A DNA stretch of 64,000 bases. Origin: an uncultured Gemmatimonadota bacterium. Lineage in GTDB: Bacteria > Gemmatimonadota > Gemmatimonadetes > Gemmatimonadales > Gemmatimonadaceae. The stretch spans positions 4,521 through 68,520 of the forward strand of contig CADEFN010000012.1 of assembly GCA_902826615.1 (NCBI GenBank), read 5' to 3'. A model generated the notes under the pieces. It did no database searches, had not been told where the DNA came from, and was given only the letters and a program-made list of their open reading frames with translations. Each line of letters opens with the position of its first letter. Position 1 is the stretch's first letter. The position numbers and the translations under genes were made by a program. Below are positions 5,961 through 42,363 of this stretch, piece by piece.

Positions 5961-5969
5961 GAGGATGAG

Positions 5970-6749: not shown

Positions 6750-6751
6750 CG

Positions 6752-7999: not shown

Positions 8000-8012
8000 G
8001 AGTGGAGGATCC

Positions 8013-9592: not shown

Positions 9593-9601
9593 CCGGCCAC
9601 C

Positions 9602-10453: not shown

Positions 10454-10462
10454 GAGTTTGTC

Positions 10463-10615: not shown

Positions 10616-10636
10616 CCGTCGCGCAAGGGGAGACCG

Positions 10637-11625: not shown

Positions 11626-11634
11626 GAGGGTCCC

Positions 11635-13559: not shown

Positions 13560-13578
13560 GGTCGGGAGGGGGAACACA

Positions 13579-13613
13579 GGGGGGAACACTGACTGGGGAG
13601 CAGTGTTCCCCCC
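13579..13613. promoter_or_regulatory. perfect 13-bp inverted repeat GGGGGGAACACTG-N9-CAGTGTTCCCCCC (terminator or oriT-type hairpin)
   Basis: Read directly. It lies 20 bp after the stop of 12570..13559 and is preceded by a direct half-repeat GGGGGAACACA (13568-13578). Confidence 0.4.
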
Positions 13614-13762
13614 ACCGATGGGTCGATTGCGCAGGAACTGTCGTCTCGAGTCGCGCGGAGTGGGGCGCGTAAGCCATTGCACATCAGCGCGATAGCCGGT
13701 ACTGGGCGCTCAGTCGACCGATACCTTCCAGCCGCAGGCAGACAGAGGAAGTAGGGAGGTTT

Positions 13763-13833
13763 GGGTGTGAGCGACCCCCCTCTCGCGCCCCGACGTTCGT
13801 CGGAGCCGCAACCCAAGGGGGTCGCTCACACCC
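13763..13833. promoter_or_regulatory. perfect 17-bp inverted repeat GGGTGTGAGCGACCCCC-N37-GGGGGTCGCTCACACCC (candidate oriT/regulatory hairpin)
   Basis: Read directly. The loop contains a small inner palindrome, CGACGTTCGTCG. It lies in the 324-bp non-coding gap upstream of the 98-aa gene and the coupling protein gene. Confidence 0.35.
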
Positions 13834-13883
13834 CGTCATGGTGAATCTGCAGGGCAACCTGCGCAGCGACAAGGAGGTCGGTC

Positions 13884-14180
13884 ATGTCCGTGATCAAACC
13901 GCGCACACGCGGCAAGCAACAGGTGCTGCACCGCACGCGCCTCGACCGCGAGAACCACGAGACGTTGTACGCGTACGCGCAATTCATTGGCGAGTCGCCC
14001 GACTACGTGCTCAACGAGGTGATCGACGTGGTGCTCGCACGCGACAAGGAGTTCGCGACGTGGCGCAGCGAGCACCCCGAGTCGTACGCGCCCGCGCCAC
14101 TGCCACGGCGTGCGCCCGCACGTCGCGGGGGCAGGCGTGCGTCACGGCCGGATCCGGCGCCCGTGCCGGCGAACGCGTAG
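13884..14180 (+). CDS. small basic protein (98 aa), possible DNA-binding accessory of the coupling protein/relaxosome
   Basis: AGGAGG lies upstream. The sequence is MSVIKPRTRGKQQVLHRTRLDRENHETLYAYAQFIGESPDYVLNEVIDVVLARD followed by a Pro/Arg-rich tail. It sits immediately 5' of the T4CP gene. Confidence 0.45.
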   Translation: MSVIKPRTRGKQQVLHRTRLDRENHETLYAYAQFIGESPDYVLNEVIDVVLARDKEFATWRSEHPESYAPAPLPRRAPARRGGRRASRPDPAPVPANA

Positions 14181-14201
14181 CCATCACCGCCTGGAGACGC
14201 C

Positions 14202-16190: not shown

Positions 16191-17164
16191 GCAGCCTGGA
16201 TCGCATTCTGCCGTTCCTGCGGCCCATCGAGGACCTGCTCGTCGACCCGGACATCACCGAAGTGATGGTGAACGCCGGCGGCCGACGCGTGTTCGTGGAG
16301 CGCAACGGCATGTTGGCGGCGGTGCCGGATCGCACGCTCGAGACCCGCAACCTCACGGTGGCTATCAAGAACATCGCCCGGGCGTGCGGCGACGAGATTT
16401 CGGACACGCAGCCCATCCTCGACGCACGCCTCGAAGATGGCTCGCGCGTGGCGGCGATGTTCCCGCCGTGCTCGGTGGATGGCCCGACGTTGACCGTGCG
16501 CAAGTTCACGCGGCGCTACGCGCTGGCTGATTTGGTTGCGGTTGGCACCCTGACGGACGCGCAGGCGGCGTCTCTGACGTCGGCCGTTCAGCAGGGGAAG
16601 AACATCCTCATCTCTGGCGGCACCGGTACCGGGAAGACCACACTCCTCAACGCGCTCGCCGCCGGCATCCCAACCGGCGACCGGATCGTGCTGATCGAAG
16701 AGACATCCGAGATCCGCATCGACCAGCCGAACGTCGTGCGCTTCGAGGCGCGGCGAGCGCAGACACCGCTCGGCCAGGAAGCGCCGACACCGCCAGTGAC
16801 GATCTCAGACTTGGTGCGAGCCACGCTCCGGCATCGTCCGGACCGCATCCTGCTGGGCGAGGTTCGAGGCGCCGAAGCCTTCGACTTGCTGCAGGCCTTG
16901 AACACGGGCCACCTGGGCAGTCTCACGACCATCCACGCGAACTCGGCGGAGCAGGCGTTGACCCGCTTGGCGCACTGCGTGTTGACGGCCAACGTCGGGT
17001 TGCCGCATCGGAGTATCCGCGAAGCCATCGCCCTGGCCGTCAACCTCGTCGCGCATCTGGCCCGACGGGACGGTCGACGCGTGGTCACCGAGATTGTCGC
17101 CGTGCTGGGCTACGACGCACCCTGCGAGCTGTTCGCGGTTGAGCCATTGGCGCCTCATCCCTGA
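16187..17164 (+). CDS. virB11: T4SS traffic ATPase VirB11 (CpaF/TadA-like)
   Basis: 325 aa. Walker A: ILISGGTGTGKTTLLNAL. Walker B: IVLIEETSEI. RPDRILLGEVRGAEAFDLLQALNTGHLGSLTTIHA follows. The start overlaps the T4CP stop (ATGA). Confidence 0.9.
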   Translation: MSSLDRILPFLRPIEDLLVDPDITEVMVNAGGRRVFVERNGMLAAVPDRTLETRNLTVAIKNIARACGDEISDTQPILDARLEDGSRVAAMFPPCSVDGPTLTVRKFTRRYALADLVAVGTLTDAQAASLTSAVQQGKNILISGGTGTGKTTLLNALAAGIPTGDRIVLIEETSEIRIDQPNVVRFEARRAQTPLGQEAPTPPVTISDLVRATLRHRPDRILLGEVRGAEAFDLLQALNTGHLGSLTTIHANSAEQALTRLAHCVLTANVGLPHRSIREAIALAVNLVAHLARRDGRRVVTEIVAVLGYDAPCELFAVEPLAPHP

Positions 17165-21736: not shown

Positions 21737-22843
21737 ATGCAGAGTACTGGTGTCGCTGCAGTCACGGCGTTCACCGCACATCGGGAATGGGCCACACGCC
21801 CCCCCGACGAGCGGTTCGCCAGCGTCTCGACGCTCTACGAGGCGGCGCGCGACCGGCGCGTTCGCACCGAAGAGCGGGTGATCGAGACGAGCCAGATTCA
21901 GACCGACGCGCCGACTGACGACGGACTCGTGCTACGCGAGCCGTCCGGACAAACCTCGGCGCTCACGCACTGGAGCTTCGAGCAGCTCGCCGGCATCGCT
22001 GGTGCGCCGCCTCGCTACCTCCGCACGCTGCCGGCGTCGATCGCATCCAGTGCGATCAACTTCGGACTGCGTCGGCAACGCCGCGACGGGCTGCAGCTCT
22101 TCGTGGACCAGGCCGACCCACGGACCGTACACGCCGTCACCTCCCAGAGGTACGAGCGCGTGCACCACGACGAGCTGGCAGCGCGCGTGCTCGACCTGAT
22201 GGGGGAGCACCCCGCGTGGCACCTGCCGCCTGGCTACAAGGATGGCGTGTTCGGCGCTGTACGGATTCCGTCTGGCGCCTATCTGGGAGATCGCGACATG
22301 TTCCTCTTCTTGATCGACGGGAACCGATCGCTTGACGACCCGACCGACCCCTCGCAGGCTGGAATGTTCCGTGGGTTCATCCTGCGGAACAGCGATGTCG
22401 GAGCCGCCGCTCTCACCCTGGATCTGTTCCTGTTCCGCGCCGTGTGCGGGAACCACATCATCTGGGGCTTTCACCACCTGGCCGGCTTCCGCCGCCGGCA
22501 CGTGGGCGCGTCGATTCACGAGGCGTGGGCGGGCTCCCTTGAGTCCGTGCGCGCGTCCCTCGACGCCAGCCTCGACGACGACCGCGCCATGCTCCTGAGA
22601 GCCACCACTCAGGAACTCGGCGCGTCGCGCGAGGAGGTCCTCAACACGGTCACGGCGCGACTGGACCTGTCGCGTAAGGTGGCCGACGAGGCCTACGGGT
22701 TGGCTGACGCCTACGAGCGGAATCCGCGCTCCATCTGGGGGTACGTGCAAGGGCTGACACGACTCAGCCAGCGCACGCCCTGGCAGGACACGCGGTTCGG
22801 GCTCGACCAGGCGGCCAGTCGCCTGCTCGCCACGGTCAGCTGA
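21737..22843 (+). CDS. DUF932/DUF945-like protein (common ICE/plasmid leading-region protein)
   Basis: 368 aa. Size, context next to RadC, and segments such as HWSFEQLAGIAGAPPRYLRTLP and FLFRAVCGNHIIWGF match my recollection of DUF932. This needs an HMM check. Confidence 0.6.
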   Translation: MQSTGVAAVTAFTAHREWATRPPDERFASVSTLYEAARDRRVRTEERVIETSQIQTDAPTDDGLVLREPSGQTSALTHWSFEQLAGIAGAPPRYLRTLPASIASSAINFGLRRQRRDGLQLFVDQADPRTVHAVTSQRYERVHHDELAARVLDLMGEHPAWHLPPGYKDGVFGAVRIPSGAYLGDRDMFLFLIDGNRSLDDPTDPSQAGMFRGFILRNSDVGAAALTLDLFLFRAVCGNHIIWGFHHLAGFRRRHVGASIHEAWAGSLESVRASLDASLDDDRAMLLRATTQELGASREEVLNTVTARLDLSRKVADEAYGLADAYERNPRSIWGYVQGLTRLSQRTPWQDTRFGLDQAASRLLATVS

Positions 22844-23161
22844 CCGTGACGCGTCGCATGCCGGGCTGAGCCCGCACGCCCCGACAACCACACCCAGCAG
22901 TGCGAGCGCGGCCTGACGCCGCCTCGCACTCCTGCGGGCGACCCGTGTCGCTCGCGGCAGCCTCCGCTCTCAGAGCCAGGCGCTCCGACGGAGGGATCCG
23001 CGATGCGCTCGACTCCACACGTCACTCCACTAGCCGCCGGTCCGGGCGGCATCCCCTGTCCACCTCTTTTCGCCATTCGTCGCGCGTTCGCGTACCCCGC
23101 CGTCGCGACACGGCCGTCGTGTGCCCCCGAGCCACGCCCGCCGCTTTCCGGGAGACCGTCC

Positions 23162-23680
23162 ATGTCTGTTGACTCGCTGCCTCCATCCCGCGGCCATCGC
23201 GTCCGCGAGTTCGTCTGCTCCTACCGCACCCTCCGCGACGATCAAGGTCAGGCCGTCCGCCTGTCCACCCTCGCGCTCAGCGATCCGCGCATTGCCGCGG
23301 ACACGCTGGCGCCGCTCCTCGCCCAGGAAGCCGTCGAGATCTTCGCGGTGGCCTGCCTCTCAACGCGCCATCGGCTGCTGGCGTGGCACGTGCTGTCGCG
23401 CGGCACGCGATCCGCGACGAGCGTCTCGCTGCCCGACGTCTTCGTCCCGGCGTGTCTCACGCCCGGCACGACCGCCCTGCTCGTGGCGCACAACCACCCG
23501 AGCGGAGATCCCACCCCGAGCGCGGATGATGCCCGACTCACCCAACGACTCGCGCAGGCGGCCGATGTGATCGACATCCCGCTGCTCGACCACCTCATCG
23601 TCGGGGCCGACGGGCGCTACTACAGCTTCCGTGAAGCCGGCGTGCTGCCGCCGCGAGGTCTCGGCCTCGCGCGGCTCTGA
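23162..23680 (+). CDS. radC: RadC-like JAB/MPN domain protein
   Basis: 172 aa from ATG 23162. JAMM motif: LLVAHNHPSGDPTPSADDARLTQRL, then IPLLDHLIVGADGRYYSFRE. Confidence 0.8.
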   Translation: MSVDSLPPSRGHRVREFVCSYRTLRDDQGQAVRLSTLALSDPRIAADTLAPLLAQEAVEIFAVACLSTRHRLLAWHVLSRGTRSATSVSLPDVFVPACLTPGTTALLVAHNHPSGDPTPSADDARLTQRLAQAADVIDIPLLDHLIVGADGRYYSFREAGVLPPRGLGLARL

Positions 23681-23873: not shown

Positions 23874-24248
23874 ATGACCATGGCACTGCTGGCCCCCACC
23901 ATCACGGTGACGATCGGACGCCAGACGCGCGTCTACCACGCGTTCATCACGACGGCCCCGGCGTCGTACGACGCGCCCTCGACCCTCACGCTCCACACGG
24001 CATCGCTCGCCGACGTGGCGGGCCTCGCGGCCGATCCGGTCCGTCTCGAGCTGGCGCGTCGCCAGCGCTCGGGGCGCCTGGTGCTCGTCGAGACGACGCA
24101 GTTCGTGTGGCAGCGCGCCCGCTACCGCGAGGGGCGCTACCTGTTCGCCGCGGCCGACCCGATGCTCGTCGGCCTCAACACGCTGCAGCACTGGCTGTGG
24201 CAGCGCATCGGCCTGCCGCTGGCCGCCAAACCCCACGCGAATGCGTAG
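23874..24248 (+). CDS. hypothetical protein (124 aa), first gene of a duplicated three-gene module
   Basis: RVYHAFITTAPASYDAPSTLTLHTASLADVAGLAADPVRLELARRQRSGRLVLVETTQFVWQRARYREGRYLF is very similar to 42969..43358. Confidence 0.55.
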   Translation: MTMALLAPTITVTIGRQTRVYHAFITTAPASYDAPSTLTLHTASLADVAGLAADPVRLELARRQRSGRLVLVETTQFVWQRARYREGRYLFAAADPMLVGLNTLQHWLWQRIGLPLAAKPHANA

Positions 24249-24288
24249 CCAGCGACCCGACAACCATTCCCAAGCATTGGAGGGCTCC

Positions 24289-24600
24289 ATGGAGATCGAA
24301 GTCAAGATTCGTCGCAACGAGCACACGACGCCGGTTGGGAAGCTGGCCGATGCGGAGGTGCACTTCACGAGCGGGGTGCTGGCGGGCCTCAAGCTGGTCG
24401 GATTCGGGGTGTGGACCCGTCGGGATGGCCCGGGGTGCCACGTCACGTTCCCCGCTCGCCAGTTCACCGTCCACGGTGAACGGCGCAGCTTTGCGCTCCT
24501 GCGCGCAGTGCACGACTTGGGCGCCCAACAGCAGGTGCGGGACCTGGTGCTGCGGGCGTATGACGCGCAGACCGAGCACCCGCACGAGCACACGGCTTAG
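24289..24600 (+). CDS. SpoVG-like protein (copy 2)
   Basis: 103 aa from ATG 24289, with GGAGGG upstream. Sequence: MEIEVKIRRNEHTTPVGKLADAEVHFTSGVLAGLKLVGFGVWTRRDGPGCHVTFPARQFTVHGERRSFALLRAV. Confidence 0.55.
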   Translation: MEIEVKIRRNEHTTPVGKLADAEVHFTSGVLAGLKLVGFGVWTRRDGPGCHVTFPARQFTVHGERRSFALLRAVHDLGAQQQVRDLVLRAYDAQTEHPHEHTA

Positions 24601-24698
24601 CTTCCTGAAGGAATCGACCGCGGCGACGCCCACCGTCGCGTTAGACCGACACGAAGGGGCGCTGGTAGAGCCGGCGGCCCGGAACGTGGGCACGTTCG

Positions 24699-24923
24699 TT
24701 GGAGCGCGCCATGAGTGTGCAACTGCAATCGACCGATGTGTTCCTAACCGTGCGCGACGTGGCCGAGCGGCTAAAGGTGAACGAAGAGACAGCGCGTCGG
24801 CTCTTCGCGAGCGAGCCAGGGGTGATCGTGATCTGTTTTCCGAGGCGCGGGCGCCGCGTCTACCGGACACTGCGAATTCCAGAGGCAGTCTTCAGGCGCG
24901 TTGTTGAGAGGTTCGTGAGGTAA
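24699..24923 (+). CDS. excisionase-family (HTH_17/MerR-like) DNA-binding protein
   Basis: 74 aa. VFLTVRDVAERLKVNEETARRLFASEPGVIVICFPRRGRRVYRTLRIPEAVFRRVVERF is an HTH followed by a wing. It is a paralog of 43756..43971. Confidence 0.6.
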   Translation: MERAMSVQLQSTDVFLTVRDVAERLKVNEETARRLFASEPGVIVICFPRRGRRVYRTLRIPEAVFRRVVERFVR

Positions 24924-25537
24924 AGGATGAGCTTGGGGTCGCCCGTGGACCACACGGAAGACCTCATGGGCGGGCGACAGGGCTGGGGTTCCTATCACCA
25001 AAAACGTCTGATCGGTTACGTGGCCGACCATGAGCCGCGTCGCGGGATGGTCGGCCCGACGACAGGGCGCTGCGGTCGGCTCGTGCAATGGCGCTCCGAG
25101 CAGTTCGTAGTCTCGCGGGTGCTTAAGCCCAAGACTTCAGCTCGGTCAGCGTTCGCTGGCGACTCCCGACGGTCGAAGTCGAAACCCCGTGCGCTTGACG
25201 ACCGTTGCCGCAGTCGGAACCGCAAAGCCGTGGCGCGCGGGACCAAAGCTGCACGCAATCTAGCATTCACGCCTTGCCAGAGTCCTAAGACTGCGGTATG
25301 GTGTCCGCGAAAGTTGACCCTCGCCCCAAGAGTGTTCAACCTTCTAGCACTACGCCGGGCCGACCCTCCGCGGACCCGTTTGGCTCTAACCGAGTAGGTA
25401 ATACCGCACCGCCAATCGCCGACTGCCGAGCGAGCGATACCGCTTCGCGCGTCGTGTTTGACTGGCGAGAATTCGGACCGCACGGAAGAAGCCGATCTGG
25501 CTCGGCGAGCCCCGCCAGCGCCTTGGGAAGGGAAATC

Positions 25538-25930
25538 ATGGGTCGTGTTGAGCGAGTTGGCCTAAGGATCCTTGCGGCATTCGCCTTCCTGATCGCGACT
25601 ACTGTGCTTCGCGTAGCGGGGATCGGCGGTGCCGAGTGGCTGCTAAAGCGCATACAGGCTCGACGGACGGCCACAAACGACGTTGAGCAGAGCCGAGAAC
25701 TAGCCGCTACTGTCGACCACGCTCTCTATTACTTCGACCATCCATCACTCTGTCTGTCGAGATCGCTAGCGCTTACGATGGTGTTGCGGTTGTGTGGAGT
25801 AGACGCCACGATGGTCACAGGCATCCGTCCAGTTCCGCTCAAGGGCCACGCGTGGGTCGAGGTCGGACACTCAGTAGTGAACGACGACCCTAGGGTCGGG
25901 CAGATCTACCTTCCATTGAGTCGATTCTAG
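25538..25930 (+). CDS. lasso peptide leader peptidase, B2 protein (transglutaminase-like Cys protease)
   Basis: 130 aa from ATG 25538. The catalytic layout is C-LSRSLALTMVLRLCGVDATMVTG...KGHAWVEVGHSVVNDDP (Cys, His, Asp), as in the lasso B2/Transglut_core3 family. It sits directly upstream of the cyclase. Confidence 0.75.
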   Translation: MGRVERVGLRILAAFAFLIATTVLRVAGIGGAEWLLKRIQARRTATNDVEQSRELAATVDHALYYFDHPSLCLSRSLALTMVLRLCGVDATMVTGIRPVPLKGHAWVEVGHSVVNDDPRVGQIYLPLSRF

Positions 25931-25934
25931 ACGC

Positions 25935-27755
25935 ATGCGCGACGTAGGCTTCGTTGGAAGAATCGCACTGAAGGCTCAACCGCCAGTTGCGGTGGCGCTG
26001 TCTAAGCGCTCTGACTGGGACATCTCCGTGCGTCCTCCTGGCAGTGCCATCGCATATGACACGTCGTGCGTTATAGCCGAGACAGGAAATCGCAGAGGCG
26101 TTGTATGCGTCTACGGCTGCGTGTCGCAGGTGGACATCGCTCTCTTGGAAGACAAGCCGGACCTTGCGCCAGCCGTCATCGAAGCGTGTGCCTCTTGGCA
26201 GACCGAGTTTGCGCTTGCCTGCTGGGACTCGTTCCAAGGCCGCCTGATCCTTGCCAGAGACTCAGCCGGGGCGGTCCCTCTGTATTACCTGATCACAGAT
26301 TCAGAAATAGTGTTCAGCACCCAGTTCAAAGATCTTCTTCCATTTTCCCAGCAACAGATCGACGTGGCGCATCTCGCGACTTGCGCGGCCGCAGCTGAGG
26401 ACCTCGAACATACCTGCTACAAAGACATCAAGAAAGTGCCGCCAGGCTCATACGTTGACTCGCGCAGTGCGACCGGTCGTCCAGTCGCCTACTGGCACAT
26501 CGAGGCTATACCCGCAATAGGTGCAATCTCGGACCGCGAGTGTGAGTCTCGCACTGCAGCCCTAATTGAGCGCGCCGTGTCGCGACGTCTGAAGGGAACC
26601 GCCACCGGTTTCGCATTGAGCGGCGGCTGGGACTCGTCGTGCCTGCTAGCCGCTGCGTTGACTGTTGCCGACCCGTTACCCTTTCAATGCCCGACATACT
26701 CTTACGTCTACGACATCTCAAAAACATCCGACGAACGGCGCTATATTGAGGCCGCTGCGCAGCACTTCCACGTGAAGAATCGGCAGCTAGCAGAGTCAGA
26801 TTATCCGTTTCTCTCCGATTTAGCACCGGCGGCATCCTGGCTACTTCGGCCAACTCCGTCTCTGGCACAGTTCAGCATGCTTAGGGCGCACAGCCAAGCG
26901 TGCCATTCCGACGAGGTTGCGACCATCATCTCCGGATTCGGAGGAGATCAGTTGTTCTTGAGTGGTGATATCGCATTCCCTGTCGCAGCCTTAGGCCAGT
27001 GGCGCCGGCCTGTCGCGTCGGCTAGGCAGCTCATGCACTGGAGCGCCTATCTCAAGAAGAGCCTGCACGGCCTCGCCTTTGGCGCAGTCGCAGAATCGCG
27101 TTGGTTTGGTGGGCGCGTGCCTGCCGCAGGACGAGACTATCCAGAGTGGTTGAGCAGCAGCGCGAGTGCGTATCTGCACCAAATTGCCGCGACTGCCCGC
27201 CAGCGTGTGCGCCGGGTGGGCGTAGTTCAAGCCCGCCGAATCGAACTAGCGGAAAACGCCATTCGGATTGTTGCCGGTGGATACTCCCAAGATGCGCTCG
27301 CGCCATGTAGGGTTAGTTATCCATACTGTGACCGCGACGTGCTCGAGTTTCTGGTCGCGGTTCCTGCAACTCAGCTGCTCAGGCCCAAAGAATGGCGCTC
27401 TCTTCAGGCTCGAGTGTTTTCGAGCCGCCTGCCTAAGGCCGTTGCCTCCCGCACCGGGAAACGGGGGCCAGGCGAGGCAGTCGTTCGTGCGGTGGCGGCG
27501 GGGTGGACCACGTTGGAGAGATGGTTTCGTGATTCGCGCTGCAAAGACCTAGGACTCGTCGGCGATAAGTTTGACCAATATCTTATGACCGTTAAGCACG
27601 GAAATCAGCACTGGACTGGGCATTTGATGTGGATGATCGCCCTGGAGGCTTGGCTACGTCAGCATGAGTCTCACGAGCGTGAAGCATTGCTGCGCGCACC
27701 ACGTGCGCGCCAACGAGCGGTCGCGTCTAGCGCCGAGGAGGAGGTGAGAGCATGA
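25935..27755 (+). CDS. lasso peptide cyclase, C protein (asparagine synthetase B-like)
   Basis: 606 aa. LILARDSAGAVPLYY is followed by the ATP-pyrophosphatase loop FALSGGWDSSCLLAAAL (SGGxDS). There is no N-terminal Cys2 nucleophile, as in lasso cyclases. Confidence 0.85.
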   Translation: MRDVGFVGRIALKAQPPVAVALSKRSDWDISVRPPGSAIAYDTSCVIAETGNRRGVVCVYGCVSQVDIALLEDKPDLAPAVIEACASWQTEFALACWDSFQGRLILARDSAGAVPLYYLITDSEIVFSTQFKDLLPFSQQQIDVAHLATCAAAAEDLEHTCYKDIKKVPPGSYVDSRSATGRPVAYWHIEAIPAIGAISDRECESRTAALIERAVSRRLKGTATGFALSGGWDSSCLLAAALTVADPLPFQCPTYSYVYDISKTSDERRYIEAAAQHFHVKNRQLAESDYPFLSDLAPAASWLLRPTPSLAQFSMLRAHSQACHSDEVATIISGFGGDQLFLSGDIAFPVAALGQWRRPVASARQLMHWSAYLKKSLHGLAFGAVAESRWFGGRVPAAGRDYPEWLSSSASAYLHQIAATARQRVRRVGVVQARRIELAENAIRIVAGGYSQDALAPCRVSYPYCDRDVLEFLVAVPATQLLRPKEWRSLQARVFSSRLPKAVASRTGKRGPGEAVVRAVAAGWTTLERWFRDSRCKDLGLVGDKFDQYLMTVKHGNQHWTGHLMWMIALEAWLRQHESHEREALLRAPRARQRAVASSAEEEVRA

Positions 27756-27952
27756 AATCAATCGAGAATGGAAACGAAGCGCTGCAGGGTCAGTGGGCCG
27801 CGCCGTCGTGGGAGGCCCCGGAGCTGGTCGATCTCGGGAACGCTGTCGAGATCATCCAGGGTGGCGGCTCGTGCTGCCCCGATCACGACAACGGCTACAT
27901 CGGAGTGCCCTTCACGTCGTCGAATGACGACGAGTTCGCTGACGGCCAGTAG
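27752..27952 (+). CDS. putative lasso peptide precursor (A), 66 aa
   Basis: Sequence: MKSIENGNEALQGQWAAPSWEAPELVDLGNAVEIIQ / GGGSCCPDHDNGYIGVPFTSSNDDEFADGQ. The leader has the W/Y-x-x-P-x-L-x3-G motif. The core starts with Gly and has Asp at position 8. The start overlaps the cyclase stop (ATGA). A perfect hairpin follows the stop. Confidence 0.6.
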   Translation: MKSIENGNEALQGQWAAPSWEAPELVDLGNAVEIIQGGGSCCPDHDNGYIGVPFTSSNDDEFADGQ

Positions 27953-27968
27953 CTAGCGCACGAGTGTT

Positions 27969-27998
27969 GGGGAGGCAATCCGCAAGGATTGCCTCCCC
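27969..27998 (+). terminator. perfect 13-bp stem / 4-nt loop hairpin GGGGAGGCAATCC-GCAA-GGATTGCCTCCCC after the precursor gene (intra-operon attenuator candidate)
   Basis: Read directly, 17 nt after the precursor stop codon. There is no U-tract, so it is more likely a partial terminator or RNA-stability element. Confidence 0.4.
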
Positions 27999-28018
27999 AG
28001 CACAATCTCGAGGTGTCT

Positions 28019-28273
28019 ATGAGGCTTTCGCGGTCAGCGAGTTTAGTGTCCCATGAACGGGGTGCATTTGTGATGCAGACATCGTCGGGTAGATGCTACG
28101 GGATGAACCCGTCCGGAGCCCTCGTGCTTCATGCGCTACTAGAGAGCAACGGCAGCTCCGCGACAGTGGCAGACAGTCTGGCTGAGCAGCTGGGGCAAGA
28201 TCGCGACGAGATGCGTAGAATGGTGACGCAATACGAAGAAGAGTTGCGTCGCAAGGGAATTCTCGTCGACTAG
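28019..28273 (+). CDS. lasso peptide B1 protein (PqqD-like RiPP recognition element)
   Basis: 84 aa from ATG 28019. FVMQTSSGRCYGMNPSGALVLHALLESNGSSATVADSLAEQLGQDRDEMRRMVTQYEEELRRKGIL matches the PqqD-family pattern: beta strands, then a three-helix bundle. Confidence 0.7.
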   Translation: MRLSRSASLVSHERGAFVMQTSSGRCYGMNPSGALVLHALLESNGSSATVADSLAEQLGQDRDEMRRMVTQYEEELRRKGILVD

Positions 28274-28290
28274 AAGACATAAGCAAACCA

Positions 28291-30672
28291 GTGCCAACGC
28301 CCTCTGCCGAATTCGTCAGGTTATCGCTTAGTTTGCCACGGATGTCATGGAGCCGGTGGACTCGCCAACCACGGGAGTTCGCCCTGGCGCTGAGTCTAGT
28401 CGCGTTCGAGGCATTCGTTCTAAGTTACGCGCTCATCACCTTCGACTATGGGGTCAGAGCCCCAGTGCCAATTAGTAACGCGGAGCGCTATTTTAGCGTG
28501 TGGCTTCGGGACTCACAGCGGGGCACCTCGCGGGGCTCATTCTCGCAAGCTGAGGCGACGGCGGTGGACGGCGCCCTCCAAGGCATCGCCGACACCATTG
28601 CCACCAGTGTGTCGCGAAGCACCGTGTCGGTGGCCGGCAGCTCCGCGAGAATGGTGGTCGCTAGTCTAAGCGCCAGTGACGTTGCCGAACTCGCCATGCC
28701 AGGCATAGGGGCAGGGCAGTCGAGAACGGATGAGGCCGGAGCCGCCATTAACCTAAGCGCGGCCGCCGCAAAGCGGCTCGGAATCGATCGGTACAAGTCT
28801 AGTGGAAGTGTGCTGCGGGTGTCTGGTAAAGCGGTGGCGTTGAGCAACGTGTTTGACGACCGCTTTGGCTGGGCCGGGGCGGATGCCGTATTGGTGGCTG
28901 GAGCAAGCGAGCGGACGGGGCCCTACTCGCTCGTGGTGAAGCTGGCCGCGCCCCGGCAGGAATCGAGAGTCGCCCAGCAGGTTCTCTCGGGCGTCACGGC
29001 GTCCGGAACGCCGACGTCATCCTCTGCCCGAGTCGAACTGCAGCCGCTGGCAGACAGTCTGTATCCTGGCGCGCGAAAGTCATTCGCGGAGCTTGTGGCA
29101 CTCAGCGGGGCAGCGGCCGTGGCGTGTGTGCTGGGCCTCTTCGGAGTCGTCGTCGTGCGCGAGCGGCGGATGGCACCCTATGCCCACATTCAGCAGGCGA
29201 TCGGTCAGACGCCAAGAATTGCGCTATGTGAGCGGTTGGCGGACTACGCGCTTGTGTTCGGCGTGGGTGGGGCCATAGGCGTGGCGGCCAGCTACTTGAC
29301 CGGCGAAGCCTTGCAAGTAGTGCTGCCGAGGAACTTCCTGCCGAAGGGCGCGTTGATGCAGCTCGACAATAGCCACGTCTGGCGGCTCGCTCTAATGATT
29401 GCACTGTCTGCGTTGGTGGCGGCTTGTGTGGCGCACGCGCTGTCGTCTGCGGTCGCGAGCAGAACGCCAGTCGTTGCGGTGTTCGGGGAACGGGGTTTGC
29501 GACGAATACTGGGCGCGTCGGTGGTGCTCCAGGTTGCCGTAGCCACGTGCGTCTCCGTTCTGGCGAACTGGTATCGAACGGATCTAGTCGTCAGAGACCG
29601 AATGTACGACCAGGCGGAGTTGCGTGGCACATACGTAGCAGACTACGACAGCGCCCTCGGAACAAGATTGCTCTCTGCAGCCGAGGAAATCGAGCGGACT
29701 CTGTCTGAAAATGGCGTATCGGCCGTAGCTGCATTCACGGCTGGCGGGTTCCATCCACTAGACTTGGCGACGACGGGAGTGGCGTCGGCGCCCGGCGAAC
29801 AACCATTCAAGGAAGCGGCAGTTATTCAGATGACTCCGCACTATTTGAAGTCCAAGAATCTTCGGATACTACGTGGACGGGGGATCGAGACTGGCGATGA
29901 GCAATCGCGACGACAGGTCGCTCTGATTAGCCAAGCGCTAGCAAGAGAGATAGAAGTGGCGGGGCGATCTGCACTAGGTGCGCAGATCTTTCTCCCAGAG
30001 TTCGCACGGTTTAGAGCCGAGCTTGCGAGCGTGCCGTTCGAAGTGGTTGGGATAGTCGAAGACGCGTCATATTTCGGTTGCAAGGTGGCGTCGTGCCCGA
30101 CAGTGTACATACCATCAATGGTCCTGGCCGTGGCAAGGACTCTGGTACTCAGGGTGGGCAACGGTCACGGGCCGGTGGAGCAGCTTCAGGGCATCTTGGA
30201 GCCGACACTGCGCGGACAAGCGGCGCTAGAATCAGTCGCGAGCCGCGTAGCCATTCGGGTGACCGATCAAGCCAGAGCGAGGATGCGGCTGAGCCTCGCC
30301 GCAATGGCGCTGATGCTGGGAATGTCTGCGCTCAGCGTGTTTGCAGCGGCAGATGCGGCCGCCCAGCAGGCGATGCCTGAACAGGCGATGCGCTCTGCTC
30401 TGGGCGCGTCGCCTTGGAGCCTCGCCGCTCGATTTGGTCTCTCACGAGGAAGGTCGGTCGCATTAGGCACACTCGCTGGCATGGCGGGCGCTAGGCTGCT
30501 CGAGACGAGATTCCTTCCGGTAGACCAAGCGCTACGCGGCGGCGACTACGCCGCGGCGTGCTTGGTCATTGGGGCTGTGTCCGCCATGGCAATCGCGCCC
30601 ACGCTCAGGCGTGTGTGGGCTAGCGAACCCATGAGGATGCTAGACAGCGGGCAGGCACTGCGCCATGTCTGA
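28291..30672 (+). CDS. duplicated FtsX/MacB-type ABC transporter permease (793 aa)
   Basis: The topology is one TM helix, an extracytoplasmic domain of about 230 aa and three TM helices, repeated twice. This is the classic double-FtsX permease. No ATPase gene is adjacent. The GTG start lies 18 bp after B1. Confidence 0.65.
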   Translation: MPTPSAEFVRLSLSLPRMSWSRWTRQPREFALALSLVAFEAFVLSYALITFDYGVRAPVPISNAERYFSVWLRDSQRGTSRGSFSQAEATAVDGALQGIADTIATSVSRSTVSVAGSSARMVVASLSASDVAELAMPGIGAGQSRTDEAGAAINLSAAAAKRLGIDRYKSSGSVLRVSGKAVALSNVFDDRFGWAGADAVLVAGASERTGPYSLVVKLAAPRQESRVAQQVLSGVTASGTPTSSSARVELQPLADSLYPGARKSFAELVALSGAAAVACVLGLFGVVVVRERRMAPYAHIQQAIGQTPRIALCERLADYALVFGVGGAIGVAASYLTGEALQVVLPRNFLPKGALMQLDNSHVWRLALMIALSALVAACVAHALSSAVASRTPVVAVFGERGLRRILGASVVLQVAVATCVSVLANWYRTDLVVRDRMYDQAELRGTYVADYDSALGTRLLSAAEEIERTLSENGVSAVAAFTAGGFHPLDLATTGVASAPGEQPFKEAAVIQMTPHYLKSKNLRILRGRGIETGDEQSRRQVALISQALAREIEVAGRSALGAQIFLPEFARFRAELASVPFEVVGIVEDASYFGCKVASCPTVYIPSMVLAVARTLVLRVGNGHGPVEQLQGILEPTLRGQAALESVASRVAIRVTDQARARMRLSLAAMALMLGMSALSVFAAADAAAQQAMPEQAMRSALGASPWSLAARFGLSRGRSVALGTLAGMAGARLLETRFLPVDQALRGGDYAAACLVIGAVSAMAIAPTLRRVWASEPMRMLDSGQALRHV

Positions 30673-31858
30673 ACCTGCCAAGGGAGCGTCGACTCTCGGG
30701 GGAGTGCAGCCCGCGAGCGCGGATTGCACCGGGGACCGCCCTCAGCCACCGGGCAAAGGGAACGGCGCGGTAGGAGACGACCTCTTGGTCGGGCTCCCAA
30801 GCCTTTTGGCGTGGGGCACGTCCGGGGCAATCCTACAAGACGCCGAGCGCGTCTATGCGGAGTGGATGTGGCGGAAGCTGCGAGGGTGGGCAGAGCACCA
30901 CGGGAGGGAGCTTTGGGACGAGGTCGTTGCCCTGCCTGTAGAGAGCCAGCGTCGGCTGCTGTGCGCACCATCTACATTTCGTCTGTTGGGTATGTCCCCG
31001 GGTCTGCCGTCGCAAGCGGAAATCGGAGAGTTGAGACGGCGTGTAGCCGTTGAGAGATGGAGACTAGATCCAATACAGGCGCACGCGGAAGGATGGTCGG
31101 CGTTGGGCGACTGCCACGCTGTGGGTGGAGGTCATGAAGGGCCCGAGAGCGTCGGAGGCCCGCCGGAAGAGCAGATCCGCCGACGCCTCGTCGGGGCAGT
31201 CAGCCTGGATCTATGCAACCCCTATTCGATGAGCATGCCGGCGGGTGCCTGGGACGGTGGAGTGGGGTATCCCGAGTCGCGCTTGCCCGAATTGAACGCC
31301 GCCGTCGGTAGAGGGCTCGACTGCATCGCGCGCGCAAGCGGTACCGCACGCGCGCTTGTCGATGCAGGTGTGCGCGTCCTGCTCCCAAAAGAACTGCCGA
31401 ACGCTGGCCAGGCGACGCCTTCTGCGTCGTGGCGAGCGGCAATCGGGCTCGTTGCCATTGGCAATCCTCTTCGCGCAGAATGGTCTCCTCAAAGAATGGC
31501 TGATGCGCTCGTGCATGAAGCAATCCATCAGTTGCTTTACAAGGTGGAATTGCGCCAGCCGTTCTTCGTCGACATGGGCACCGCATCTCGCCTTGAGGTT
31601 GTGTCCCCATGGAGCGGGAGCACCTTGAAGCTCACGCAGTTCGCTCACGCGTGTCTCGTCTGGGCCGGGCTATGGCACCTCTGGCGGCGGTGGGAAGGAA
31701 AGGAGCCTGCGGTGGAACAACTCCGCAGGAGGGCGGCGGGCGGATTCGCAGGAGGAACACCGTTGAGCCTGCTCACCGTAGAGGCGCGGAGGGCGATTGA
31801 TCGCCGTGCCCTCGACGCGCTGGAGATGGTCTGCGAGTCAGTGGCGCAACGCGACTGA
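30665..31858 (+). CDS. HEXXH-motif domain protein (putative peptide-modifying enzyme)
   Basis: 397 aa. Motif: RMADALVHEAIHQLLYKVELRQPFF. It overlaps the permease gene by 8 nt and is the last gene of the lasso operon. Confidence 0.6.
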   Translation: MSEPAKGASTLGGVQPASADCTGDRPQPPGKGNGAVGDDLLVGLPSLLAWGTSGAILQDAERVYAEWMWRKLRGWAEHHGRELWDEVVALPVESQRRLLCAPSTFRLLGMSPGLPSQAEIGELRRRVAVERWRLDPIQAHAEGWSALGDCHAVGGGHEGPESVGGPPEEQIRRRLVGAVSLDLCNPYSMSMPAGAWDGGVGYPESRLPELNAAVGRGLDCIARASGTARALVDAGVRVLLPKELPNAGQATPSASWRAAIGLVAIGNPLRAEWSPQRMADALVHEAIHQLLYKVELRQPFFVDMGTASRLEVVSPWSGSTLKLTQFAHACLVWAGLWHLWRRWEGKEPAVEQLRRRAAGGFAGGTPLSLLTVEARRAIDRRALDALEMVCESVAQRD

Positions 31859-32346
31859 CCATGCGGACGAGCCTCTGCCTCGTCGTGGGCGCCGCAGTCG
31901 CGTCAGTGGACCATGTGGGGCAACTGAGGTCGCGGCCGGTCGCACAAAGGCATGGCGATTGTCTCTGTGTGGTGCGAAAAGTGCCGACAGGCAATTGTAG
32001 ACGAGAGCCTTGTGATGCTGGTCCGCCGTGACCTGAATGCCATGGAGCAACTATTGACTGCCGCGCGAGCTCAAGACTGGCCCGGCAGGCCGCCGTGCTG
32101 GCGCGCGTCTCAAGTGCGACGGCAGATGGGTGTCGGAGCGGCGTGGTCTGCGTGCGCGACCGAGCGCCTACAGCGTTAGGCGCCTCAGAGAAGTCAGCCT
32201 TGTATGCGGAAGGAGAGTGGCAAGTGCCCCCATTCGTGACAGACGGAGAGTGCGGCCTGGCGGGACAGGTGCAAGTAACGTGTCGGGGCGGGGCTGCTCA
32301 CCTTGGGCGAGGCCTGCGGCGCGTGAGTCTGCGCAGACGGGTTGAG

Positions 32347-32850
32347 ATGGCCGTCGGTATTGCGGCCTTTGTGTTGGCCCATGTGTCGGTAGGCGCTCAA
32401 AGCCAGGTGCCGGTCGATGCTGCGTCCAGCGGCGGACTGGTCTACCGCTCGCCGCTAGAACGCGAGTTGGCCGATGAGGTCATGTGCACGTGTGGCGGGT
32501 GCAACTTGCCAGCTGGAAGTTGTGGCATGATGAACTGCGAAGGAAAAGCGGCTCAACTGACGAAAGTGAAACGGCTCGTGTCGCAGGGCATGGGCAGAGA
32601 CGAGATACTCAAGGCGTTCGTTCGTGACGCTGGCGGACAGCACATTCTGGCTAGGCCACTAGACGATGGGTACCATCGACTTCTGTGGCTCGTTCCATAC
32701 GCGTTCGCAACGCTATCTGCTTTTGCATTGGCGTGGACGACGCGCAGATGGGCAGCGACGAAATCAACAGATGCGACTCGCGACCGGAACGCGGGGATAG
32801 ACGATGCCATTAGCGCCCGACTTGACGACGAACTCCACGACCTTGACTAG
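32347..32850 (+). CDS. CcmH/NrfF-like thiol-redox membrane protein
   Basis: 167 aa from ATG 32347. The track ORF 32095..32850 over-extends. The sequence has a signal peptide, the Cys cluster VMCTCGGCNLPAGSCGMMNCEGKA, GMGRDEILKAFVRDAGGQHILARP and a C-terminal TM helix, which is the CcmH layout. Confidence 0.5.
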   Translation: MAVGIAAFVLAHVSVGAQSQVPVDAASSGGLVYRSPLERELADEVMCTCGGCNLPAGSCGMMNCEGKAAQLTKVKRLVSQGMGRDEILKAFVRDAGGQHILARPLDDGYHRLLWLVPYAFATLSAFALAWTTRRWAATKSTDATRDRNAGIDDAISARLDDELHDLD

Positions 32851-32912
32851 CACAATGGTCAGGCGCCCGGTCAGGCGACTCCACTGCCAGCGCCGATACC
32901 GAAATCGAGTCA

Positions 32913-33413
32913 ATGACGACGCTTCGTGATATCGGCGAGGTCGCTATTAAGGTGATCGGGCTGTACTACGCGGGTCGAGTGCTGTCCCTGTATGTAGCGC
33001 TTATGCTGACGCCGTATCTGCTCTCTCCGCAGGCCTTTTCTGCGTCTGACCCCTTATTGGCTGCGAGTATTTCCTCAGCAGTCGGCAGTCTCGTCCTCGC
33101 GATCGTGGCGCTGAGTTCGTCAAGACGCGTGGCCGGGTGGACGTTCCCGGCCAAGGCGCTGAGTAGCGGCGGGAGCACGAAGGAGTGGCTGTTTGTTGGC
33201 ATAGCCGTCTTGGGTGCTTGGATTGCTGCGGATGCGACTGTTGGGATTCTTCGGTCTGCGGCCGCTTTTGTCTACTACAGTCAGACGGGATTGCCGCTAG
33301 CCTCTCTTGAGCGGTCAACGCCTCAAGTCGTCGCGAACGTCGTGACGGTTGTTGTCGGTGTCGTGCTTATGTCGAGGGCAAGGCGAGTCGCCCAGCGGCT
33401 TGATCGAAACTAG
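32913..33413 (+). CDS. membrane protein (166 aa, 4 TM)
   Basis: Four hydrophobic helices. No family was recognised. Confidence 0.5.
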   Translation: MTTLRDIGEVAIKVIGLYYAGRVLSLYVALMLTPYLLSPQAFSASDPLLAASISSAVGSLVLAIVALSSSRRVAGWTFPAKALSSGGSTKEWLFVGIAVLGAWIAADATVGILRSAAAFVYYSQTGLPLASLERSTPQVVANVVTVVVGVVLMSRARRVAQRLDRN

Positions 33414-33764
33414 CTAGTGGCGTGGCGGTTGTGGGTGGCCTAGCTCCGAGGCCCAGGGAATTGCGTCGGGAAGCCCTTGGGCACTTGGAAGCGCTACCCG
33501 CCGGCGGCTGTCCTTGGCGTGTCCCCCAGGTGGCCAGGGCCCTAGTGGAGTTGCGAGGCGTGCCGCAGCTGGCCACAACGTGACGCAATGCGATTGGCAG
33601 GCGACGAGGACCGCCAGTAGCGACGAGAGTACGGTCGTCCAGTCGACGCGTCGCGGACTATGGTGGCGGCTGAGCCTGAGCGCCCCGAGCGGTTCAGTTC
33701 GCGTGGCACGGCGGGCAGGCAAGGGGCACGCCGCAAGCGCGGCCAGTATCAACACGGCGACGGA

Positions 33765-34022
33765 TGACGTCCCCCCGATTCTGAGTAGCGTTTCGGTTTA
33801 GAGTCCGGCCTAGCGAAAGGGTCGGACGATGAAGAAGCGGTTCACGGAAGCACAGATCGTGGGGTTCCTGCGCGAGGCCGATGCCGGGATCCCGGTCAAG
33901 GACCTCTGTCGCAAGCACGGGTTCTCCGACGCGAGCTACTACCTCTGGCGCAGCAAGTTCGGCGGCATGAGCGTGTCGGACGCGAAGCGGCTGAAGGAGC
34001 TCGAGATCGAGAATGGCCGGCT
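33765..34022 (+). mobile_element. 5' fragment of an IS3-family (IS407-group-like) element: left inverted repeat plus the first ~64 codons of orfA
   Basis: TGACGTCCCCCCGATTCTGAGTAGCGTTTCGGTTTAGAGTCC is followed by orfA (33829...) that is nearly identical at DNA level to the orfA of the intact copy at 41110..42317. Identity ends after ...GAGAATGGCCGGCTG (~34022). The track ORF 33829..34044 is the truncated orfA. Confidence 0.75.
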
Positions 34023-34023
34023 G

Positions 34024-35006
34024 TTGACGCTCAGCCAGTCCTGACCATCCGTCCTCATTGAGCGTTGACTACGGCGGCGCAGCGTCAGGTGTCCGCGCTG
34101 GGCTTCATTCCTGGTCGGAATGGTCGGGAGCACCTGGTCGGTGCTCGGTGAGCAGAAACTCTCTCTCCTGTTCAGAATCTTCCGAGCGGCAACAATCCAG
34201 CGCGTCCTGCCGGTGGCGACGGTGGCCAGCGAGCGCTTCCAGGCATGGTTGCGAGCCAAGAACGCCCAAAGCTGAGAGGTCTACGTCGGCACGAACGCAA
34301 TGGCGCCCGGACAGCGGTCGAGGACGCGCGAAAGCGTGGCGTCTGTACGGCACGTGTGCCTCGATGCGGACGAGGCGGGGCAGCGGCTTCTGGCGGCTGT
34401 TGCAGCACTGCCCGACATCCCGCCGCCCTCCTACGTCCTGCGGACATCACCGGGCCGCGTTCGCGTGCTGTGGCGCGTGCAGGGACTCGACATACCGAGG
34501 TTGGGGGCGCTGCAGAAGCGCCTGGCCAACCAGCTCGGCGCCGATGTTGCAGCGACGTCGGCCGCGCAGCTCACCCGCCTTCCTGGATTCCTCAACCACA
34601 AGCGAAGAGAACCGTCCGCAGTGTCACTGCTCCTCGGCGCGCTGAGTCGAACCTATGCGGCCCGCGAGTTCCCTCAAATGAAGGGGTAGCGTCATTGCAC
34701 CGAAGCGGCCAAACGAACCGCGTAACCCGAGCCCGAACGTACCTGCTGTCAGTCCCGCCTGGGGTGGCGGGCGAGCACGGGCACACGCATACGTTCAGAA
34801 TGTGCTGCAGAGTCGTTCGCGGATTCGCGCTAAGCGAACACGACGCGCTGGCAGCGTTGGTTGAGTGGAACGAGCGCTGCGTGCCGCCTTGGCCGGCGTC
34901 GCATCTGGCGGCCAAGGTGCGAAACGCAGGGCGTTACGGCCGCGAGCCACTCGGCGCCCGCGTGCTCGAGCACGGCTGCGTGCCTACGTCACGGTATTGC
35001 GGCTAG
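34024..35006 (+). pseudogene. decayed RepB-type DNA primase / PriCT gene
   Basis: One frame reads ...RVLPVATVASERFQAWLRAKNAQS, then an in-frame TGA (34273-34275), then EVYVGTNAMAPGQRSRTRESVASVRHVCLDADEAG...YVLRTSPGRVRVLWRVQG...GADVAATSAAQLTRLPGFLNHKR. These are RepB-primase-like motifs. A PriCT-like segment FALSEHDALAALVEWNERCVPPWPASHLAAKVRNAGRYG lies in a different frame (34800..35006). The 5' end abuts the IS fragment. Confidence 0.5.
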
Positions 35007-41996: not shown

Positions 41997-42253
41997 TTTT
42001 TTCGCAACACCTCACGGGTCACCTCGTTTTCCAGGAGGGCGTCCGCGAGCAGCTTCTTCAGCCGGCCGTTTTCGATCTCGAGCTCCTTCAGACGCTTCGC
42101 GTCCGACACGCTCATGCCGCCGAACTTGCTGCGCCAGAGGTAGTAGCTCGCGTCGGAGAACCCGTGCTTGCGACAGAGGTCCTTGACCGGGATCCCGGCA
42201 TCGGCCTCGCGCAGGAACCCCACGATCTGTGCTTCCGTGAACCGCTTCTTCAT
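41990..42253 (-). CDS. IS3-family transposase OrfA (HTH)
   Basis: Sequence: [77 protein letters not shown]. This is an HTH followed by a leucine zipper. Confidence 0.85.
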
Positions 42254-42321
42254 CGTCCGACCCTTTCGCTAGGCCGGACTCTAAACCGAAACGCTACTCA
42301 GACTCGGGGGGACGTCACCGG

Positions 42322-42363
42322 TGACGTCCCCCCGAGTCTGAGTAGCGTTTCAGTTCAGAGTCC
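42322..42363 (+). repeat. solo left-end inverted repeat of a second copy of the same IS, abutting the intact copy head-to-head
   Basis: TGACGTCCCCCCGAGTCTGAGTAGCGTTTCAGTTCAGAGTCC lies 4 bp (CCGG) from the outer end of the intact IS. Similarity to the IS stops after ...AGAGTCC. Confidence 0.6.

Follow-up and report, generated by a model that had tools for sequence, protein, structure and literature searches.

Introduction

Lasso peptide precursors typically carry threonine at the last position but one in the leader peptide, which is nevertheless not obligatory, as BsfA from Bradymonas sediminis is processed with isoleucine at this position, as validated experimentally in 2023 (PMC10368454). 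Ile/Val(-2) residues were also reported in Acidobacteriaceae and Sphingomonadales, a kinase is present in every Ile/Val(-2) cluster described in that paper, and Ser3 is phosphorylated in the Bsf system (PMC10368454). Here we analyse a lasso peptide operon with an Ile(-2) precursor in a 64,000-nucleotide stretch (hereafter the window) of contig CADEFN010000012.1 from an uncultured Gemmatimonadota bacterium (assembly GCA_902826615.1). We consider it likely that this operon, carried on a conjugative element, encodes a split-B lasso pathway in which the product of the precursor A is tailored by an α-ketoglutarate (aKG)-HExxH-type oxygenase.

Two groups of enzymes are relevant to such tailoring. 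So far a single lasso peptide hydroxylase is known to act on Asp, the canonical iron/2-oxoglutarate (Fe/2OG) enzyme CanE, which is aided by a B1 protein (PMC9266682). Among aKG-HExxH enzymes, ChlH hydroxylates Asp and His and BpmH takes part in biphenomycin maturation (PMC12636437). For PflC and PosC the reactions are Gln hydroxylation and oxidative backbone cleavage, the latter in front of a C-terminal ARMD tetrapeptide, the small first residue of which is decisive (PMC12636437). Our literature search found no publication linking an HExxH oxygenase to a lasso peptide cluster.

The lasso operon and its precursor

The operon is compact and lies entirely on the plus strand, in the order B2, cyclase C, precursor A, a hairpin, B1, permease and HExxH oxygenase. 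The B2 leader peptidase is a transglutaminase-like protein of 130 residues (25538-25930; PF13471, E 3.5e-19; NF033537 lasso_biosyn_B2, 68 bits against a cutoff of 33), whose catalytic triad Cys72/His104/Asp116 is invariant in an alignment with six relatives (alignment A3). It is followed by the Asn-synthetase-like lasso cyclase of 606 residues (25935-27755; PF00733, E 3.4e-25; NF033535, E 6.8e-36), in which the SGGxDS PP-loop is invariant (alignment A1) and whose NF033535 score lies below the exception-level cutoff.

The precursor is encoded by a 66-residue open reading frame (ORF) at 27752-27952, with the translation MKSIENGNEALQGQWAAPSWEAPELVDLGNAVEIIQGGGSCCPDHDNGYIGVPFTSSNDDEFADGQ and the leader/core split MKSIENGNEALQGQWAAPSWEAPELVDLGNAVEIIQ|GGGSCCPDHDNGYIGVPFTSSNDDEFADGQ. 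Its ATG overlaps the cyclase TGA (ATGA); a Shine-Dalgarno sequence (GAGGAGGAGGTG) was read from the sequence at 27735-27746, and the GGAGGAGG ribosome-binding site stands 7-8 nucleotides 5' of the ATG. The 36-residue leader peptide (27752-27859) contains W(-17)xxP(-14)xL(-12)x3G(-8) at 27809-27838, corresponding to W20 to G29 of the precursor, and ends with Ile at -2 (27854-27856) and Gln at -1. The motif reads WEAPELVDLG and stands in the exact register of YxxPxLx3G (-17 to -8), with Trp replacing Tyr. The core peptide (27860-27949) has just two cysteines, Cys5 and Cys6 (27872-27877), which are adjacent and both within the predicted ring, with Asp8 (27881-27883) as the predicted acceptor. Five acidic residues follow Asp8, namely D10, D23, D24, E25 and D28; the residues of the core that could be modified are five Asp, one Glu, one His and two Asn, mostly in the stretches D8-H9-D10-N11 and N22-D23-D24-E25-F-A-D28.

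This precursor was found as the sole match of a lasso-leader pattern in the window, a pattern that gave about eight false matches when some 2 Mb of related loci were scanned in all six frames. The identical peptide is present on contigs from one Joint Genome Institute (JGI) metagenome and in at least five Logan runs, at least six independent runs in total, and thus the ORF is not an assembly artefact. A word-based search of 5.8 billion proteins returned no homolog besides the peptide itself, so the core is not directly comparable with others. A first-pass annotation of the same DNA had proposed this ORF as a lasso precursor, and its translation, the core at 27860-27949, and the positions of Ile/Gln, C5-C6, D8 and D10 are all correct; the assignment itself is borne out by the adjoining pathway genes and by the same leader register in homologous clusters. 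We therefore have little doubt that the 66-residue ORF encodes a lasso precursor.

The B1 protein, a PqqD-like RiPP recognition element (RiPP, a peptide synthesized ribosomally and modified post-translationally) of 84 residues, is encoded at 28019-28273 (PF05402, 36.1 bits against a cutoff of 23.4). Its gene sits 3' of the precursor, whereas the B1 genes of the relatives all lie 5' of B2. No tblastn match was found between the window B1 and the B1 proteins of these relatives, though the latter readily detect one another. A kinase family, either HPr-kinase-like or phosphotransferase, was found in no ORF between 23.0 and 33.4 kb.

The aKG-HExxH oxygenase

The last gene of the operon (30665-31858) encodes a protein of 397 residues, the start of which overlaps the permease stop by 8 nucleotides, so that it belongs to the lasso transcript. 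It matches TIGR04267, named aKG-HExxH-type peptide beta-hydroxylase (IPR026337), at 54.2 bits where the cutoff is 40 (E 1.7e-14). An alignment of 20 homologs (A2) shows no variation at HEAIH (284-288), Y292, SPW (314-316) and H328; the HExxH motif (H284, E285, H288) and the downstream His (H328) would provide the metal ligands, going by the literature on the family. A profile search of the Protein Data Bank (PDB) with the oxygenase returned only ChlH (8s5f, E 7e-8), with the HExxH, downstream His and SPW motifs aligned. The AlphaFold2 model (mean predicted local distance difference test score 85.5) matches the HExxH domain of ChlBH (8s5f) in Foldseek with E 3e-9 and template modelling scores of 0.59-0.70; the next match was SjiH (PDB 22ob), on which a literature search gave nothing relevant, and the remaining, unrelated matches had E > 0.1.

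An HExxH oxygenase in the operon provides a concrete candidate chemistry for the Asp/His-rich core. From its operon membership, we suggest that the enzyme most likely beta-hydroxylates Asp and/or His of the core.

Between B1 and the oxygenase, a duplicated FtsX/MacB-type permease of 793 residues is encoded at 28291-30672 (PF12704, PF02687). It aligns over its full length (57-784 of 793) to the ADOP family model TIGR03434 with E 2e-24 and 85.6 bits, far under the cutoff of 622; judged by sequence, it is an ADOP-like duplicated FtsX/MacB permease and not an ADOP member by the family cutoff. It is presumed to be an exporter or immunity protein.

Proposed pathway

In the pathway that we propose, the PqqD-like B1 would bind the leader peptide via W(-17)xxP(-14)xL(-12), and the Cys-His-Asp protease B2 would cut between Gln(-1) and Gly1, tolerating Ile in place of Thr at -2. 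The Asn-synthetase-like cyclase would then adenylate the side chain of Asp8 and join it to the amine of Gly1, and the resulting eight-residue ring GGGSCCPD would be threaded by a 22-residue acidic loop and tail. The aKG/Fe(II) HExxH oxygenase would most likely beta-hydroxylate at least one Asp, or His or Asn, of the core, its substrate probably being the linear, leader-bearing precursor by analogy with CanE in canucin biosynthesis. The duplicated FtsX permease would export the product or protect the producer. Cys5 and Cys6 could form a vicinal disulfide or serve as free, metal-binding thiols. The calculated monoisotopic masses are 3060.177 Da for the linear core, 3042.167 Da for the lasso form and 3040.151 Da if the lasso form also has a Cys5-Cys6 disulfide, and each hydroxyl would add 15.995 Da.

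Permease and HExxH genes outside lasso clusters

In a set of 1.84 billion proteins, the oxygenase family counts 928 representatives at E <= 1e-3. No lasso genes were present in 79 metagenome loci found with an alignment of the HExxH subfamily. In at least 11 metagenome loci, the closest HExxH homologs, which are 30-39% identical, have as direct neighbour a true ADOP permease (TIGR03434, 747-826 bits), mostly with the permease gene before the HExxH gene on one strand, as in the window. Such pairs were seen across loci L090-L103, for example at L101:5459-9119, L102:5468-9098, L093:2230-5826 and L103:7956-11658. Where enough sequence is available, as in L101 and L102, the pair is embedded in a grasp-with-spasm RiPP cluster that also encodes a double-Gly precursor, an ATP-grasp ligase (TIGR04192) and a SPASM protein (TIGR04193), along with a C39 ABC exporter and a DarD-like ATPase.

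An acidic stretch of the form D-x-D-(F/Y/I)-(D/E) close to the C-terminus (VDLDFEE, DSDYDL, DADYDW, DSDIDS) is shared by grasp-with-spasm precursors near the HExxH homologs, the precursors being located at L102:50-253, L106:714-905 and 1124-1297, and L107:4173-4364 (-). The stretch loosely recalls D8-H-D10 and NDDEF of the window core, and it may be a target motif of the oxygenase or merely hold the sites of ATP-grasp cross-links.

The recurrence of the permease-HExxH pair across RiPP classes is compatible with a tailoring-plus-export cassette, and it also allows the pair to act independently of the lasso peptide. The latter is the strongest competing explanation, in which the lasso pathway is the same but the permease and HExxH genes form an independent two-gene module for export, immunity or another substrate, leaving the product unhydroxylated. 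We regard it as a realistic, if rather doubtful, possibility. It gains from the finding that the closest HExxH homologs adjoin ADOP permeases in grasp-with-spasm rather than lasso clusters, and from the observation that no other lasso locus examined has an HExxH gene. However, in those other loci too the HExxH gene is accompanied by a precursor within a RiPP cluster, in keeping with a role in peptide tailoring, while in the window operon the lasso precursor is the only precursor-like gene and the 8-nucleotide overlap ties the oxygenase to its transcript. The window permease, moreover, shows no greater similarity to HExxH-linked ADOPs than to lasso-linked permeases: its tblastn matches are to the lasso-linked loci L025, L012 and L022, versus only L150 among the HExxH-linked loci. 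Since this permease is very divergent, its source lineage is not assignable.

Several further points weigh against the tailored lasso pathway. The lasso product is a prediction from the genes. The leader peptide is off the norm at two recognition positions (Trp(-17) and Ile(-2)) and the B1 protein is very divergent, which makes processing no more than plausible, and with three N-terminal Gly residues and Asp10 as a further candidate acceptor, alternative rings are formally conceivable. A search of 80 lasso loci, 79 HExxH loci and plasmid records gave no other lasso locus with an HExxH gene, and the link between oxygenase and peptide comes from one operon. The closest HExxH homologs pair with ADOP permeases in grasp-with-spasm clusters; the permease-HExxH pair could constitute a module with its own role. 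Finally, the operon is 100% nucleotide-identical in all metagenome copies, so that no selection signal (the ratio of nonsynonymous to synonymous substitution rates, dN/dS) can be obtained.

Cleavage site, ring and related precursors

Scanning 80 genome loci and two metagenome loci for the leader pattern yielded 64 distinct precursors from 58 loci. The homologous cyclases are 26-32% identical to the window cyclase overall, with 29% for the best metagenome relative and 32% for the best match among 185,579 species genomes, a Thermoanaerobaculia metagenome-assembled genome (MAG); very little was matched when the cyclase and the HExxH protein served as queries in word-based searches. One word-search match to the cyclase, P0005, turned out to be an asparagine synthase of a polysaccharide cluster rather than a lasso gene and was excluded from the query alignment. 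Beside the cyclase of the nearest relatives there is a small ORF in the register YxxPxLx3G-x5-Tx, and it lies directly 3' of the cyclase in L007, L008, L010 and L012, as in the window. The first-pass annotation had held that a different conserved small ORF, or an ORF not conserved next to homologous cyclases, would speak against its assignment; this check comes out in favour of the assignment, since a small ORF sharing the leader register accompanies the homologous cyclases.

Across the closest precursors, P(-14), G(-8), Gly1 and Asp8 are invariant and position 10 varies (alignment A4), as seen in the ring segments GCSGCCCD of L010, GSVGCTND of L007, GSCGGPMD of L014 and GRPNLTCD of L012. The window core thereby follows the lasso pattern of a small first residue (Gly) and an Asp or Glu at one of positions 7-9. 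The invariant Gly1 and Asp8 and the shared leader register support cleavage at IQ|GGG and the eight-residue G1-D8 ring that the first-pass annotation had favoured, and on this alignment both appear well supported. Another register would start the core from Gly2 or Gly3 or use Asp10 as acceptor, with G2-D8 (7), G3-D10 (8) or G2-D10 (9) as the conceivable rings. Three consecutive Gly residues and Asp10 would permit it, and with Ile(-2) the cleavage site is less firmly anchored than by the customary Thr, but the 64 related precursors and those in the literature (PMC10368454) keep the same spacing between W/Y(-17)xxPxL and the cleavage site, and Asp8 is invariant among the closest relatives where position 10 is variable. 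We thus deem such a shift unlikely.

More unlikely still, in our estimation, is an oxidative trimming of the core, in which the HExxH enzyme would remove a short C-terminal peptide, for instance after Phe26 at A-D-G-Q, and leave a C-terminal amide, instead of or besides beta-hydroxylation. The idea comes from PflC and PosC, which are aKG-HExxH enzymes cleaving before ARMD, and from the ADGQ end of the window core; however, the likeness to their substrates is just a four-residue tail beginning with Ala, and the precursors next to the closest HExxH homologs share no common C-terminal motif. That the small ORF is unexpressed, or a chance or decayed ORF in a defunct cluster beside an Asn-synthetase paralog, is highly improbable, for despite the missing homologs and the cyclase score under the equivalog cutoff, the four core genes are intact with their catalytic residues kept, the precursor has a strong ribosome-binding site, translational coupling to the cyclase gene and a leader motif in the right register, and hypervariable cores are usual for lasso peptides.

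Residue counts were taken over the 64 related precursors, that of the window included. The -2 position is occupied by Thr in 57, Ile in 3, Val in 2 and Leu in 2, the Ile carriers being the window and two precursors of Lihuaxuella L044 ('ELIQ|GCGG'). Cores of at least 30 residues occur in 29 of the 64 and a Cys within the ring in 18, while a CC pair was found in three, namely that of the window and those of L010 (GCSGCCCDCECC...) and L007, the two relatives closest to it. In the ring of L010, GCSGCCCD, the CC pair likewise includes positions 5-6, and acidic tails are strongest in the nearest relatives. At -17, 63 precursors have Tyr and one, that of the window, has Trp. Because Ile(-2), long cores, ring Cys and acidic tails recur in relatives, they are clade traits rather than singular to the window peptide, and by this census their status as exceptional features is not supported; the traits that stand out are Trp(-17), the displaced, divergent B1 and the lack of a kinase.

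The features to which the first-pass annotation had drawn attention therefore fare unevenly. Thr(-2) is indeed missing, yet Ile(-2) was validated in BsfA and recurs in L044; the 30-residue core is long compared with characterised lasso peptides, yet common among relatives; and the Cys-Cys pair within the ring and the Asp-rich tail with its five further acidic residues are present without being exceptional. The (Y/W)xxPxLx3G motif is also there, but Trp at -17, itself a departure, was passed over. At the gene level the precursor was recognised, while the HExxH oxygenase, the permease, the Trp(-17) residue, the displaced B1, the absence of a kinase and the mobile setting were overlooked.

The window B2 is most similar to the B2 proteins of Thr(-2) clusters from Acidobacteriota, from which we infer that its Ile(-2) probably arose independently. 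The Ile(-2) cluster of Lihuaxuella thermophila DSM 46701 (L044:2702-13700) encodes two 40-residue, four-Cys precursors ('ELIQ|GCGG...'), together with a MacB-type ATPase with a duplicated FtsX permease and MauE and DsbA-like thioredoxin genes. No kinase was found in the ORFs of the scanned part of this locus, which qualifies the published statement that all Ile/Val(-2) clusters have one. Duplicated FtsX permeases flank the related lasso loci L012, L022, L025, L059 and L044, all without an HExxH gene. The precursor at L010:9566-9700 (Thermoanaerobaculia MAG DASUSN010000145.1) has 10 Cys in a core of 27 residues, GCSGCCCDCECCRRCCCGDVPVEEVLA, with CCC at ring positions 5-7; this core resembles metallothionein, and the cluster is otherwise a canonical B1-B2-C-A-ABC-HlyD-S8 peptidase arrangement.

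Neighbouring genes and mobile-element setting

Upstream of B2, a sigma-70-like promoter candidate, TTGCCA-17-TATGGT, lies at 25274-25302 on the plus strand; the consensus scan that gave it is weak, with 3 sites versus 1.1 expected. Directly 3' of the precursor stop and before B1, a hairpin with a perfect 18-bp GC-rich stem, a GCAA loop and no U-tract is found at 27964-28003 (plus strand). On folding, the 81-nucleotide hairpin region reaches -49 kcal/mol (z = -7.6), and none of 200 shuffled sequences was equally stable. We infer that the hairpin acts as an intra-operon attenuator or a stabiliser of the messenger RNA, and it probably raises the precursor transcript relative to the downstream genes.

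Beyond the oxygenase gene, the 366-bp gap contains nothing convincing as a second precursor. It is followed on the plus strand by a gene for a membrane-anchored CcmH-domain protein with a CxCxxC...CxxxxC segment (32224-32850; PF03918, E 1e-7), which may handle thiols or disulfides, and by a gene for a predicted multi-pass membrane protein of 166 residues (32913-33413) with no family match, which may be an immunity protein. Cluster membership is uncertain for both genes, and no homolog of the CcmH-domain protein was found in the other lasso loci examined. Neither an ABC ATPase nor a transfer RNA gene was found in the window. The best sequence matches and the ADOP-like permease would by themselves tentatively suggest a host among the Acidobacteriota.

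The type IV secretion and conjugation genes of the window span 3402-17164 and include a VirB4/TrbE-like ATPase (3402-5960), TrbI (6752-7999) and a TraG/VirD4 coupling protein (14202-16190). Between them and the operon lie genes for DUF932 (21737-22843), RadC (23003-23680) and an excisionase-like helix-turn-helix protein (24699-24923). Given the conjugation genes and the excisionase-like gene, the lasso operon is cargo of a conjugative element. Downstream of the operon there is an integrase (48286-49497), and then a defence island with a restriction-modification pair of type III-like methylase and Res helicase (49869-54327), a Gabija-like pair of OLD-family AAA/TOPRIM ATPase and UvrD helicase (55165-58750) and an Mrr-type endonuclease (58747-59667).

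The block 23874-33413 is 100% nucleotide-identical to JGI contig Ga0558718_04981 (L001), whereas the flanks of this alignment show 78 mismatches and 12 gaps, with 5 synonymous differences in RadC. An identical lasso block between diverged flanks would fit a recent transfer of this block, or a sweep. A direct repeat of 300 nucleotides, 86% identical, occurs at 23928-24227 and 43038-43337, its first copy inside a 124-residue ORF upstream of the operon, and an inverted, insertion sequence-like repeat of 272 nucleotides, 97% identical, occurs at 33760-34031 and 42051-42322 near an HTH_Tnp_1 gene. These repeats bracket the lasso operon and an 8-kb segment, which suggests a mosaic insertion.

Significance and comparison with known systems

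By its sequence alone the precursor is isolated but otherwise unremarkable within a familiar RiPP class; the novelty resides in the pathway, which combines Trp(-17) and a displaced, divergent B1 with the lack of a kinase and with an aKG-HExxH oxygenase and an ADOP-like permease. If the HExxH enzyme acts on the precursor, a recently discovered oxygenase fold, so far known from triceptides, biphenomycins and Pfl/Pos peptides, would join lasso peptide tailoring. The cluster would be a second, independent natural case of Ile(-2) processing, here without a kinase, and the Trp(-17) leader with its very divergent B1 should be useful for understanding and engineering leader recognition. Permease and HExxH genes recur as neighbours in soil metagenomes, a hint of some as yet unstudied functional link between them, of which we found no description in the literature searched. 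We tentatively put forward, as a bolder and rather speculative proposal, that this is the first lasso pathway tailored by an aKG-HExxH enzyme, giving beta-hydroxy-Asp (or hydroxy-His) beside a vicinal Cys pair in the ring of an anionic, metal-chelating peptide outside the current classes, and that permease and HExxH form a portable 'modify-and-export' cassette across graspetide-type and lasso pathways, moved here by the conjugative element.

Among known systems, one close counterpart is the Bsf cluster, with which the window shares the split B1/B2, Ile(-2), the -17 to -12 register (YxxPxL in Bsf) and a predicted Gly1-Asp8 ring. Unlike Bsf, the window has no kinase but an aKG-HExxH gene, and it has Trp rather than Tyr at -17. 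Lacking a kinase, it also falls outside the phosphorylated, Bsf- or paeninodin-like group of Ile/Val(-2) clusters. The core of 30 residues equals that of achromonodin-1 (30) and is shorter than that of pandonodin (33) (PMC13352647).

With respect to tailoring, canucin A from Streptomyces canus (PMC9266682) offers a model, as its beta-hydroxy-Asp is set on the linear precursor by the Fe/2OG enzyme CanE with the help of B1; CanE, however, is a canonical cupin-type enzyme acting on the C-terminal Asp, while the window enzyme has an unrelated HExxH fold. In motifs and fold the latter is best matched by ChlBH/ChlH (8s5f; Morishita et al. 2024, cited in PMC12636437), which hydroxylates Asp and His of a RiPP. 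Identity to ChlH is nevertheless only about 14%, and the window oxygenase is stand-alone, encoded 3' of a permease gene in a lasso operon; ChlH belongs to triceptide clusters, where it is fused to or works with a radical S-adenosylmethionine cyclophane synthase and requires that the cyclophane be in place beforehand. The grasp-with-spasm clusters (L101, L102 and relatives) hold the closest oxygenase homologs and resemble the window in having permease then HExxH on one strand, but they differ from it in their ATP-grasp ligase, SPASM protein, C39 ABC exporter, double-Gly leaders and bona fide ADOP permeases.

The two ring cysteines call for comparison with the disulfide-bearing classes I, III and IV, represented by sviceucin, BI-32169 and pandonodin (PMC13352647), which likewise have Cys in the core. 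Known lasso disulfides connect ring and tail, ring and loop or two positions of the tail, and classes I, III and IV are defined by two disulfides or by a single one from ring to tail or within the tail, whereas the cysteines of the window peptide are adjacent and both within the ring. The related Cys-rich L044 cluster carries MauE and DsbA-like genes, and the window has a CcmH-domain gene nearby. The window peptide would thus belong to no defined class if its cysteines were oxidised, and to class II if they were reduced.

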